Source: Telluria sp.
GTDB taxonomy: Bacteria; Pseudomonadota; Gammaproteobacteria; Burkholderiales; Burkholderiaceae_D
Length of the DNA: 64,000 bases
Direction: 5' to 3'
Assembly (NCBI GenBank): GCA_036386755.1
Contig: DASVVC010000015.1
Span: forward strand, 5,960 to 69,959
Shown piece after piece: positions 55,677 through 58,548 of this stretch. A program made the position numbers and the translations under genes. The first letter of the stretch is position 1. Every line of letters starts with the position of its first letter. The notes below the pieces were generated by a model, which worked only from the letters and a program-made list of their open reading frames with translations, did no database searches and was not told where the DNA came from.

Positions 55677-55705
55677 GGTAGGATTCCTGTTTGATAAGGG
55701 CTGAT

Positions 55706-56302
55706 ATGCAAATTCGCCGAAGCATCCAATACTCGTTGGTTGCAGCAGTGCTGATAGCCACGAGCAATACCGGATTGATGTTTGGTTTGAACGCTGGCGA
55801 GTGGGCCAGCTGGGTTCAGGCGATCGGCTCCATGGCTGCCATTGGTGGGGCGTTTGCGATTGCGAATGGACAGCATGTGAACGAACGCAATGCAGAAAAC
55901 GCTAGGCGTGCGGCGGACGAGCGGCAGCGCTTCAAGATCGTTCTTGCGATTCTCACCAAAACCGAAACGACGATCAGCAATTTGGCCGCAGCGCGTGCCA
56001 ACAATGTCTTTCAAATGCCTCCCGAGAATTTCGAGACACTGCTGAACGACTGCGAAAAATTGCTCGGCTCGGTAGCCCCTGTTGACATGCCCCACGAAGA
56101 TCTGGTCCTGATTTGCCATGGGCTTCAGCAAGAAATTCCGACAATCTCCTTGGGATATGGCCTGTGGCGGCAACAGATTGAAGCCCCCAGGCAAAATATT
56201 GATACCCGCAGCGCTGCAACCAATACGGCCGTTGACGACGCGCTGAAGCTTGCGAAAGATGGCTCTGACCTTTGCATTGCGCAAATAGCAAGTAGATGCT
56301 GA
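55706..56302 (+). CDS. Opposite-strand two-TM membrane protein (moron; candidate exclusion/abortive-infection factor)
   Basis: AAGGG SD. TM helices YSLVAAVLIATSNTGLMFGL and WVQAIGSMAAIGGAFAIA, then a helical domain. Lower GC. Confidence 0.6.
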   Translation: MQIRRSIQYSLVAAVLIATSNTGLMFGLNAGEWASWVQAIGSMAAIGGAFAIANGQHVNERNAENARRAADERQRFKIVLAILTKTETTISNLAAARANNVFQMPPENFETLLNDCEKLLGSVAPVDMPHEDLVLICHGLQQEIPTISLGYGLWRQQIEAPRQNIDTRSAATNTAVDDALKLAKDGSDLCIAQIASRC

Positions 56303-56304
56303 TT

Positions 56305-57387
56305 TCATACGCCCTCCATCACGGCTTCGATCCAGACGCGAGCCGCTTCAGCATTGATAGCGTTTCCGTAGGCGCGCAGTCGTCCCACGCGGCTGGCAGC
56401 CCCATGAGCCAGCGGGAATGTGCCGGGTTCAACTGGCCGCCACTTTCCATCTGTGCATGCGAGCCAGTCAGCATCTCGCCAGAGGCCGTTAGTCGGACCG
56501 GCCCGCTCAGTTCGTAGAACGCCAGTTTCGTCGCGGCCGACAGGTCCATCGTTATCTTCGAGCCGTCCGGCATGCGCCCAGTCATCGATACCCCTGGCCG
56601 GAAACCCTTGCCCCCGTTCCCGTCGCTCGCACTCGGCGTCGGCCACCCGGCCAGGTAGAACGCTACGTCCGCCAGCCCGATCTGCGGGTCCGTTGGCTTT
56701 CGGCTCCCAATGATCGGTGGTTGTGGCTTGTGATCCACTAACGCCGCCCCCGGCGTAGGCCAGCCCGCCAGCGCTGCCACCCCGTTCAACGTCACCTGCG
56801 ACTTGGTCCCGTCCGGTCGCCGTCCGGTCGCCGAGCAATGCCCCATTGTTTGCCCGCCGTCCCCGTTTGCCTTCGACGGCGTCGGCCATGGTGCCCGCCC
56901 AGTACAGCCGGTCTCGGATGTGCGGCGCACCGATGCCCGCAGACGGGAACGGGATTGCCCCGAAGGTGTAACCCATGCCTTCCAGGTCAGCGTGTACAAG
57001 GTCGATCCAAGCGTCGACGTGGCTGCTCGCAACCTGCTCTCCAAGGACCGCTGAAGGGCGCAGCTCTTTGGTGAGGTGGTGGAAGGCAGGCCACAGGTGC
57101 CGCTCGTCAGCAAACCCAGCGCCTTCGCCTGCCTGGCTGAAAGGTTGGCAAGGACAGGAACCGGTCCAAACAGGTCGATCATCACCCCACCCCGTGGCGC
57201 GGAGGGCATGCGACCAAACGCCGACGCCGGCAAAGAAATGGCACTGGGTGAACTCTCGCAGGTCGTCGGGCTGTACATCTTCAATGCTCCTGGTGTCGAC
57301 CACGCCGTCAGCGATGTGCCCGGCGGTGATCAGGTTGCGCAGCCATTGGGCGGCGTACGGGTCGATTTCGTTGTAGTAGGCGGTCAC
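56305..57387 (-). CDS. DNA (cytosine-5) methyltransferase, catalytic frame (frame A); the 3' about 190 codons are doubtful
   Basis: [31 protein letters not shown] (motif IV), GEQV (VI) and [10 protein letters not shown] (VIII). After about 56890 the frame becomes G/R/D low-complexity with low GC3. Confidence 0.7.
56319..57284 (-). CDS. Same-strand overlapping frame (frame B): WPTP-repeat domain + LNPxxSRWLMGxPxxW motif; likely the real 3' coding frame of the methyltransferase locus
   Basis: Three WPTP repeats (56877, 56751, 56634). [23 protein letters not shown]3 about 82 percent versus about 57 percent for frame A over 56461-56700 (hand count). Confidence 0.55.
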
Positions 57388-57470
57388 GGCAGCACCTCAT
57401 CAGGCAGCACGAGCTGGCGCGGGTCGGTACTGAAACCGCCAGCCCCGGCGAAAAGGTCGATTGCTTTCAT
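57384..57470 (-). CDS. 28-codon ORF encoding C5-MTase motif I (MKAIDLFAGAGGFS...), same phase as frame B
   Basis: The ATG overlaps the stop of the upstream hydrolase gene (ATGA). It ends at a TGA that overlaps the GTG of frame A. Confidence 0.5.
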   Translation of the reverse strand: MKAIDLFAGAGGFSTDPRQLVLPDEVLP

Positions 57471-58024
57471 TGCTCACCCCACTGCGCCACCGCGGCGCGG
57501 ATAACATCCAGCGCCTCGGCATTCAAAAGAACCTCGGTATGAGTCGTGGCGACGCGCACGATCCGCATGTCGCTCCGGCTCTCGGCCGAGATGCGCGATA
57601 CGATCCGGTCCTCGGTTGCGACAATCTGCGTCCACGGGCAGCGCAATTTGATCGCGCGGCCCCGGCTGATAGGCAGGCTGCGCGGGTGGATGTCGCGCAT
57701 CAGCTGCGGGTGGTAGAGCGGCGCGAGGAACGGCAGGATTGCCGCCGCCGCGCTTCCGCCGAACGGGCTGCACATCGACACCGCGCCGCGAACTCGATCG
57801 CCCAGCCGGTCTGCCAGGGCCAGCGCCAGGTTGCCGCCCTGGCTGTGGGCGATAAGCCCGATCGGCCCGTCGACCGCAGCAAGCTCGGACGTGAGGCGCG
57901 TAGTGATGGCGTCGAAGCCTTCAGCAACGTCATAGCTAAGGTCGATTGTTTCGCCCAGGTGCGGGCGGATTGCGTTCCAGCTGTCGCGGGTGGCGTGGGC
58001 GCCGTGGAGGGTAACGGCGATCAT
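57467..58024 (-). CDS. Alpha/beta-hydrolase-fold protein (GxSxG nucleophile elbow AHSQGG)
   Basis: IAVTLHGAHAT..., LIAHSQGGNLAL and a late His (TTHTEVL). ATGA coupling at both ends. Confidence 0.6.
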   Translation of the reverse strand: MIAVTLHGAHATRDSWNAIRPHLGETIDLSYDVAEGFDAITTRLTSELAAVDGPIGLIAHSQGGNLALALADRLGDRVRGAVSMCSPFGGSAAAAILPFLAPLYHPQLMRDIHPRSLPISRGRAIKLRCPWTQIVATEDRIVSRISAESRSDMRIVRVATTHTEVLLNAEALDVIRAAVAQWGEQ

Positions 58025-58548
58025 GCGCATACCTCGCTGGCCAGCTGGAAACGGACGGTAGCCAGGGCCGCGAAGCCGGTCGGCTTGGCCGGCGCGCGCT
58101 CGATGCGCTCGGCGGGCGGCGCGAGATCGGCCGATGGCTTGAAGAACTTGGCCGGCAGGGCTAGCGGGTCGATCTTCGTGGTTTCTACGCGCGGCGTCGC
58201 GGCTCGCGCCTCCCGACGGACCCGGTCAGCGATCAGCCGCGCCTGACGAACAGCTGGCTTCTCCGGAACATCGAGGCTGGCGAGATACCACCGGATCTTT
58301 TGCTCGTTGGGCACAAGCACGTAGGCCGTGCGCTTGTACCCTCCCCGATTCATGACGTCCGCGCCAGCGAAAGCCGCAATACCATCGCGCTTCAGTTCGC
58401 ACAGGTATTTGCCTGCGTTCTCCGGCGAGACTTTCATCATTTCCGCAGCTTCGTACCGATTCATTCGCCCGTGGCGCAAAGCGGCAATCAAACGCTTCAT
58501 GTTCTCGCTACGTGATGGGCGAGGGATTGCTAATTTTGGCGCGGTCAT
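58021..58548 (-). CDS. HTH DNA-binding early protein
   Basis: MKRLIAALRHGRMNRYEAAEMMKVSPENAGKYLCELKRDG. Confidence 0.5.
   Translation of the reverse strand: MTAPKLAIPRPSRSENMKRLIAALRHGRMNRYEAAEMMKVSPENAGKYLCELKRDGIAAFAGADVMNRGGYKRTAYVLVPNEQKIRWYLASLDVPEKPAVRQARLIADRVRREARAATPRVETTKIDPLALPAKFFKPSADLAPPAERIERAPAKPTGFAALATVRFQLASEVCA

Follow-up and report, generated by a model that had tools for sequence, protein, structure and literature searches.

A prophage C5-cytosine methyltransferase locus open in two reading frames: a probable two-chain enzyme encoded by one stretch of DNA

How can a DNA methyltransferase whose motifs are spread over two reading phases be a working enzyme? The question is raised by positions 56305 to 57470, on the minus strand, of a 64,000-nt stretch of a Telluria sp. 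genome (contig DASVVC010000015.1, positions 5,960 to 69,959; assembly GCA_036386755.1), referred to here as the window. A preliminary description of this locus had distributed what looked like one C5-cytosine methyltransferase among a 28-codon open reading frame (ORF), a frame A starting at GTG 57387 and an overlapping frame B, and had offered frameshifting, a split enzyme made of overlapping genes, overprinting, decay and assembly indels as possible explanations. The features listed in it, namely the mini-ORF, the GTG, the motifs, the WPTP repeats and the 12-nt repeats, are all present on the minus strand, and its hand-counted values for G+C content at third codon positions match recomputation (frame A, 89.7% at 57301-57387; A 65.0% versus B 69.7% at 56941-57240; B 82.3% versus A 57.5% at 56461-56700). 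Among its explanations, the split enzyme is the one favoured by the evidence. Two polypeptides are probably made from one stretch of DNA, a catalytic alpha chain (frame A) and a beta chain (frame B) bearing the recognition region and motif IX, which would assemble into a methyltransferase; the two-frame arrangement is shared by thousands of phages. The two frames are as follows.

56305..57387, minus strand: frame A (alpha), 360 amino acids (aa), 38.5 kDa, pI 5.4 (acidic), GTG start; C5-cytosine methyltransferase.
56319..57278, minus strand: frame B (proposed beta), 319 aa, 33.0 kDa, pI 9.9 (basic), wholly within frame A in the +1 phase.

Is frame A a complete gene? The PHROGs family phrog_363 covers its aa 1-358 with an expectation value (E) of 1e-83, and PF00145 matches aa 75-169 with 45.3 bits (cut-off 22); M.HhaI is likewise matched by the profile (E 6e-17). 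A tblastn search against phages with frame A gave one-piece matches of 99% coverage and 50-58% identity, and the hosts of the matching phages include Pseudomonas, Burkholderia, Klebsiella, Salmonella (epsilon15), Erwinia and Bordetella. At least 8000 protein clusters match frame A, and the named ones among the matches listed are called "DNA cytosine methyltransferase". In full-length alignments with homologues, frame A shows 42-64% identity, and frame B shows 63% identity and 100% coverage to the homologue P0001. Because of the phrog_363, PF00145 and one-piece tblastn matches, frame A is not regarded as a phase-changing gene. The switch of coding phase near 56890 proposed in the preliminary description is not borne out; judged from these matches, frame A is an intact gene from end to end and its phase does not switch.

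The motifs of frame A follow the order II (NEID, aa 6-9), III, an internal I-like motif, IV (PCQ, aa 79-81), VI (GEQV, aa 116-119), VIII (HIRDR, aa 156-160), a spacer and X (YGNAI, aa 340-344), and the catalytic motifs IV, VI and VIII are invariant across the frame A homologues. The I-like motif, FFAGVGVW, sits between motifs III and IV and not at the N-terminus; its alignment with motif I of HhaI is weak (3.3 bits), and a strand and a helix are modelled there by AlphaFold. In the homologue alignment, two parts of frame A, aa 1-165 and aa 298-360, show high conservation. The intervening aa 166-297 are unconserved, of low complexity, variable in length and rich in Gly, Ala and Arg, and are encoded by the same DNA as the repeats of B. 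AlphaFold models aa 1-167 confidently and a C-terminal helix at aa 331-359, with predicted local distance difference test (pLDDT) values below 50 for aa 169-337. Neither a target-recognition domain nor motif IX was found between motifs VIII and X of the frame A polypeptide (aa 166-297). The last motif of frame A is located as follows.

56356..56370, minus strand: motif X (YGNAI) of frame A; G341 and N342 invariant; the C-terminal helix comes next.

What, then, is encoded by frame B? Separate profile searches, as suggested in the preliminary description, gave PF00145 and phrog_363 for frame A; frame B has no match in Pfam and matches phrog_1008 (E 3e-40), which PHROGs labels, like phrog_363, as DNA methyltransferase. 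By tblastn, frame B gave matches of 43-50% identity in 219 phage records, located where frame A matches but in the other frame, and its family comprises 10,412 representatives at 50% identity (E ≤1e-3). Neither alone nor as a profile did it match anything in Pfam, NCBIfam, PADLOC or the sequences of the PDB. The conserved elements of B are a helix-hairpin, one to many (A)GWPTP repeats and a C-terminal segment that includes motif IX; in the window, WPTP lies at aa 131, 173 and 212 of B and motif IX at aa 282-298, and the 12-nt repeat cggcgt[c/a]ggcca occurs at 56634, 56751 and 56877. The AlphaFold model of B is best at aa 70-120 and 230-290, and its helix-hairpin part has pLDDT values of 74-80. 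The B-type protein P0376 is 577 aa long with about 10 WxTP repeats, and in P0377 a C-terminal HNH nuclease domain (PF01844, 23.8 bits) is fused to a B-type protein in B's frame, which points to translation of that frame. The motif-IX-like ending noted earlier in frame B does align with a known single-chain enzyme, gp70 of Mycobacterium phage ShiLan. The parts of frame B are arranged as follows.

56893..57089, minus strand: B aa 64-128, helix and beta-hairpin, overprinting motifs VI-VIII of A.
56604..56892, minus strand: B aa 129-225, three (A)GWPTP repeats (56877-56888, 56751-56762 and 56634-56645) at the target-recognition position.
56385..56435, minus strand: motif IX of B, aligning with LAPAFSEWMMGWPAGW of ShiLan gp70.

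Whether both frames are kept open by selection was addressed with two sets of homologous loci. Through A, 22 genome loci with GC contents of 50-68% were retrieved, and the 20 with complete ORFs were used for shuffle tests; a further 80 viral loci were retrieved through two B peptide patterns. Since the viral loci were retrieved by those two patterns, their conservation is biased there, and the constraint estimates therefore rest on the 20 loci obtained with A. In 20 of the 22 genome loci, A contains an open +1 frame of 226-382 codons, and the +2 frame is open in none; the exceptions are L003, which is broken, and L017, which is cut by a contig end. In L019, also cut by a contig end, B is open up to the cut. 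At the viral loci, an A-type ORF lies in the -1 frame of B in 80 of 80 cases. The broken locus, from Pseudomonas saxonica (L003:3001-4164), has one TGA in frame A at codon 17, where homologues have Arg, and an intact B with five WxTP repeats; the TGA is either a recent nonsense mutation or a sequencing error.

In the shuffle tests, synonymous codons were permuted while the protein sequence and codon usage were kept. Shuffling of A codons predicts 2.3-7 stops in B per locus, and shuffling of B codons predicts 5.9-15.7 stops in A per locus, versus none observed in either frame at the 20 loci; the chance of zero stops per locus is 0-0.04 for B and at most 0.0005 for A. Stops in the third (+2) frame are as numerous as the shuffles predict. 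Taken segment by segment, the log10 probabilities add up to -24 for B across the catalytic core of A and -36 for A across the spacer, sums that overstate independence because the loci are related. The openness of B across the catalytic core, which the preliminary description had left unexplained by base composition, is thus beyond chance. Its other proposal, that A stays open downstream merely through the GC-rich third positions of B, fails, as shuffling of B codons predicts 1.2-7.8 stops per locus in A downstream of about 56890 and none is seen.

Decay of a pseudogene, or two assembly indels splitting a single frame, might be suspected from methyltransferase motifs in two phases and from a related E. 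coli gene that RefSeq gives as two incomplete pieces. Such an origin is scarcely credible. About 100 independent loci, drawn from many taxa and assemblies, share the stop-free two-frame layout, and both decay and assembly error are excluded for that reason. In addition, independent assembly of a sequencing run yielded an identical A protein, and purifying selection acts on both frames, as described next.

Frame-specific conservation and synonymous-site constraint, a check that the preliminary description had proposed, were examined in the homologues. Divergence at the third codon position of A is 0.54 before the overlap, 0.53-0.57 at aa 39-100 and 0.40-0.44 at aa 101-165; it falls to 0.21 at aa 321-340 and returns to 0.58 at aa 341-355, so that only A is constrained in these last 15 codons. 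Across the repeats, the third codon position of B is the most variable (0.62-0.65), and therefore only B is constrained there; at motif IX, divergence is 0.21 at the second codon position of B and 0.33 at the third. The resulting map shows constraint on A alone before the overlap and in the last 15 codons of A, on both frames at A aa 101-165 and 298-340, and on B alone across the repeats. Several synonymous codons of A are nearly fixed among 89 non-redundant genes, namely E136 GAA (88/89), V119 GTT (88/89), P111 CCT (87/89), P155 CCG (86/89) and V334 GTG (83/84). Both frames are under purifying selection.

Constraint on synonymous sites of A could also arise from RNA structure or another nucleic-acid signal, with B left untranslated, an explanation for which the unconstrained N-terminal 60 codons of B leave some room. 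We consider it very improbable. The constraint is periodic in the frame of B, with no stops over about 300 codons; indels leave both frames intact; the number of repeats varies in the manner of protein modules; and the HNH fusion in one relative is in B's frame. A conserved start site for B likewise argues against a purely nucleic-acid signal.

The start codon of B, ATG 57278, lies 109 nt inside A and is made from the A codons D37 (GAT) and V38 (G..); an in-frame TTG at 57284 would give a 321-codon ORF (57284-56319). At this spot, 73 of 89 non-redundant homologues have a +1 ATG, 56 of them also with GGAG, GAGG or AGGA upstream, and the D37 codon is GAT in 74 of 86 cases versus 38% GAT across genes. 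In most homologues, B appears to possess its own conserved GGAG-N8-ATG start, built from the R33, S34, D37 and V38 codons of A. The candidate ribosome-binding site in the window is the following.

57287..57291, minus strand: Shine-Dalgarno sequence AGGAG of frame B, 8 nt before ATG 57278, formed from the A codons R33 (AGG) and S34 (AGC).

The relation between the two frames becomes clearer from single-chain enzymes of actinophages. A search probe consisting of motif I of actinophage enzymes matched 670 phage records, and a profile was built from 28 single-chain actinophage methyltransferase ORFs. Among the matched records, that of ShiLan gp70 (389 aa) has all parts in a single frame, the catalytic core being followed by LLPTP repeats and then by motifs IX and X. 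All 121 A proteins are matched by the profile over its positions 65-192, which hold motifs IV-VIII (median E 1e-15), and all 121 B proteins over positions 246-397, which hold the xPTP repeats and motif IX; for B, the best E is 5e-10 and the median 3e-3, against 0.4 for the best shuffled control; in frame B of the window, aa 132-298 are covered. A profile-profile comparison agrees in placing the motifs to VIII in A and the repeats and motif IX in B. These matches therefore identify A with the parts of the large domain (to VIII, then X) and B with the parts at the recognition position together with motif IX, and segments of A and B can be taken, on profile evidence, as homologous to single-chain enzymes. 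The earlier reading that the methyltransferase parts sit in two phases is upheld in this form, with motifs to VIII in A, repeats and IX in B, and X in A, in an order confirmed by single-chain homology.

ShiLan gp70 has the same parts as the window pair in the same order, and its core PCQPFSAAG..DERHLWP is much like that of A; its repeats read LLPTPxAxDGxGG, its motif IX LxPAFSEWMMGWPAGW and its motif X GNGVVPQQ. In contrast to the window pair, its later repeats and motifs IX and X are all in the catalytic frame, its motif I is N-terminal and not internal, and about 10 more residues separate IX from X. A de novo origin by overprinting was considered for B and rejected for its repeats and motif IX because of their homology to single-chain enzymes; the N-terminal helix-hairpin may have arisen in that way.

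Two observations on relatives may be set beside this comparison. The "single-frame" enzymes (ShiLan gp70 at L105:538-1707, and L107-L162) still have a +1 ORF spanning motif VIII, in which lie a B-like SETWPxSGMTRSG and a first repeat, LLPTPRATDGTKGGPNQRGSSGDLMLPSAV, nearly identical in several loci; the B profile matches these actinophage +1 ORFs with E values of 4e-5 to 0.1 (best shuffled control 0.04). On these grounds, dual coding may be general in this methyltransferase superfamily. In Mycobacterium phage Llama (gp74/gp75, L024:1010-1769), the methyltransferase extends over three phases, with motifs I-VI in gp74, VIII and X in gp75, and, in the +1 frame of gp75, a WHTPTTND repeat together with motif IX (NPVWIEWLMGFPPNW).

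Could B instead be an independent overprinted protein, such as a regulator or an anti-defence factor, with A working alone as a methyltransferase? Its failure to match Pfam, NCBIfam, PADLOC or PDB entries would fit such a role, as would its basic, partly disordered nature and the existence of short A-type enzymes with few or no repeats (Llama gp74/gp75). We regard this as unlikely. The repeats and motif IX of B correspond, by homology and in linear order, to the recognition region and motif IX of single-chain enzymes; A by itself offers no region between motifs VIII and X that is conserved or folded; and an A-type ORF accompanies B at every viral locus found through B.

Another explanation is a single A-B-A chain produced by two programmed frameshifts, +1 near 56890 (after motif VIII) and -1 near 56380 (between IX and X). 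It would account for an order of homologous segments identical to that of ShiLan gp70 and for relatives with the same parts in different phases, such as the three of Llama. We nevertheless consider it quite improbable. The two programmed or tolerated frameshifts suggested in the preliminary description found no counterpart in a conserved slippery site: a conserved X_XXY_YYZ heptamer between motifs IX and X is absent in 19 of 20 loci, and the stretch after motif VIII is variable in both frames, without a stop or rare-codon signal. An experimentally studied analogue, M.EcoHK31I, has two chains (PMC2836561). Furthermore, the hallmark of frameshifting, a zero frame closed downstream of the junction, was not found, both frames being open throughout; frameshifting gives no reason for B to be open across the core of A, nor for A to be open across the repeats, and leaves the conserved Shine-Dalgarno sequence and ATG of B unexplained.

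In the favoured two-chain explanation, the locus would be an intact orphan prophage C5-cytosine methyltransferase, one stretch of DNA being read in two phases. The alpha chain would supply the large domain for binding of S-adenosylmethionine and for catalysis, with motifs II, III, internal I-like, IV, VI and VIII, and a disordered spacer of about 130 residues would tether the motif X helix to the rest of alpha; this spacer may exist only because that DNA encodes B. The beta chain would be initiated at its own Shine-Dalgarno sequence and ATG in the +1 phase, beginning with about 60 unconstrained residues. Its helix-hairpin (B aa 64-128) is the proposed alpha-binding part, and its WPTP repeats, at the target-recognition position, would correspond with motif IX to the small domain of a C5-methyltransferase. 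Alpha and beta would then join non-covalently into the active enzyme, as the chains of M.EcoHK31I do.

Both two-polypeptide methyltransferases and embedded genes have precedents. M.AquI is a natural two-polypeptide C5-methyltransferase split within the variable region, whose two ORFs are consecutive with a short overlap and not embedded. In phage lambda, the spanin genes Rz and Rz1 share a strand, one being nested in the +1 frame of the other, and their products form one complex; this pair differs in its lysis function and in the length of the embedded gene, about 60 codons versus 319 in frame B of the window.

The closest architecture is that of M.EcoHK31I from E. coli HK31 (Lee, Kam and Shaw 1995, cited in PMC2836561), in which beta is encoded wholly within the alpha gene in another frame, alpha has motifs I-VIII and X, beta has motif IX, and activity needs both chains (PMC2836561). 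Window B likewise lies inside A on the same strand in another frame, and the division of motifs is alike, with a large chain carrying motifs to VIII and X and a small chain carrying IX, except that the I-like motif of the window is internal. Progressive N-terminal deletions of the M.EcoHK31I beta chain weaken its association with alpha (PMC2836561), which parallels the constrained helix-hairpin in the N-terminal half of window B, and the sizes are similar, judging from the M.EcoHK31I expression plasmids named M38 and C23 as against 38.5 and 33 kDa here. On the other hand, M.EcoHK31I belongs to a restriction-modification system, whereas the window pair would be an orphan prophage gene, and the alpha chain of M.EcoHK31I is reported to hold the recognition domain, whereas in the window the repeats at the recognition position are in beta and the alpha spacer is unconserved.

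Several points weigh against the two-chain explanation. The likeness to M.EcoHK31I is one of architecture, as described in PMC2836561, and kinship in sequence is no more than a possibility. The homology of B to single-chain repeats and motif IX is only moderate, as its median E indicates. The AlphaFold model of B is weak (mean pLDDT 60; predicted template modelling score 0.26), and a structure search with it returned nothing significant. The unbiased locus set shows no sequence constraint on the first 60 or so residues of B, 16 of the 89 homologues have no ATG at the conserved position, and A aa 298-335 are conserved yet have no confident AlphaFold model. Finally, that B is translated, that A and B associate and that both chains are needed is what we infer from these comparisons.

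The remaining part of the locus is the mini-ORF upstream of A.

57384..57470, minus strand: 28-codon ORF with canonical motif I (MKAIDLFAGAGGFS) at its start; ATGA/GTGA overlaps on both sides.

At its start, the ATG and the stop of the upstream gene share the sequence ATGA, and at its end, the TGA and the GTG of frame A share GTGA; the mini-ORF is in the same phase as frame B, 186 nt away from it. The preliminary description had counted it as part of the methyltransferase, a role that could not be sustained, as none of 19 genome loci or 74 viral loci has a canonical motif I upstream of A, the one in this window being the only case, and A has its own FFAGVGVW. The only family match of the mini-ORF is a weak one to phrog_5999 (E 0.004), and its DNA resembles nothing in phage records; in plasmid records, similarity was confined to a short segment within A. 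The mini-ORF is probably what remains of the 5' end of another dcm gene and lies outside the conserved pair.

As to the neighbours, a 187-aa alpha/beta-hydrolase-like protein (Abhydrolase_6, 28.8 bits) is encoded directly upstream of the mini-ORF at 57467-58030 on the minus strand; it has no phage-family match and is an unusual cargo beside a prophage methyltransferase. On the other side, a 203-codon ORF at 55691-56302 on the plus strand ends 3 nt from the stop of frame A. No other gene on the plus strand is called in that part of the minus-strand block; the ORF has a hydrophobic N-terminal half, a weak match to phrog_33632 (unknown function) and no match to a defence system.

How far has this arrangement been recognized? 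A literature search on overlap in this methyltransferase family found no paper discussing it. Phage K1ind1 is already annotated with both ORFs, as a "C-specific methylase" and an embedded "Mte8-like protein"; the embedded B-type ORF28 (L023:1093-1785, Escherichia phage K1ind1, GU196279.1) is entered as a "putative Mte8-like protein", and the origin of the name Mte8 was not found. The label may point to a named methyltransferase subunit. In the description of EcoHK31I given in PMC2836561, repeats at the recognition position in beta, overlap of nearly the whole gene and a very wide distribution of the family are not reported. With somewhat less than even confidence, it is suggested that the window pair represents a very large, unrecognized class of obligate two-subunit phage C5-methyltransferases, in which a whole recognition subunit (1 to about 10 xPTP repeats and motif IX) is encoded in the +1 frame of the gene for the catalytic subunit.

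The arrangement also bears on annotation. Pipelines call only A, as in the source of the window; B may be named "hypothetical", and an intact A may even be split into pseudogene pieces. In a prophage of E. coli EC20 (L188:2363-3532, NZ_CP084900.1), RefSeq gives two "incomplete" pseudogene pieces of an A-type gene; A (390 codons) and B (four WxTP repeats) are both open there, and the unconserved spacer seems to mislead the pipeline. B is without a Pfam family, even though its cluster representatives number over 10,000.

In bacteria and DNA phages, long overlaps between genes on one strand are uncommon, and many are contested. The window pair combines unusually strong comparative support with an experimentally studied analogue and could therefore serve as a test case. 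If the class suggested above exists, its overlap of about 960 nt would rank among the longest and most widespread same-strand overlaps to be conserved in these two groups. The same modules occur in one phase in ShiLan, in two in the window family and in three in Llama, and frame-moving indels could therefore be a regular evolutionary route; tolerated through non-covalent assembly, they could change the specificity of the enzyme. If the beta chain carries specificity, prediction of the motifs methylated by these widespread prophage enzymes, and their use to evade restriction, would need both frames.

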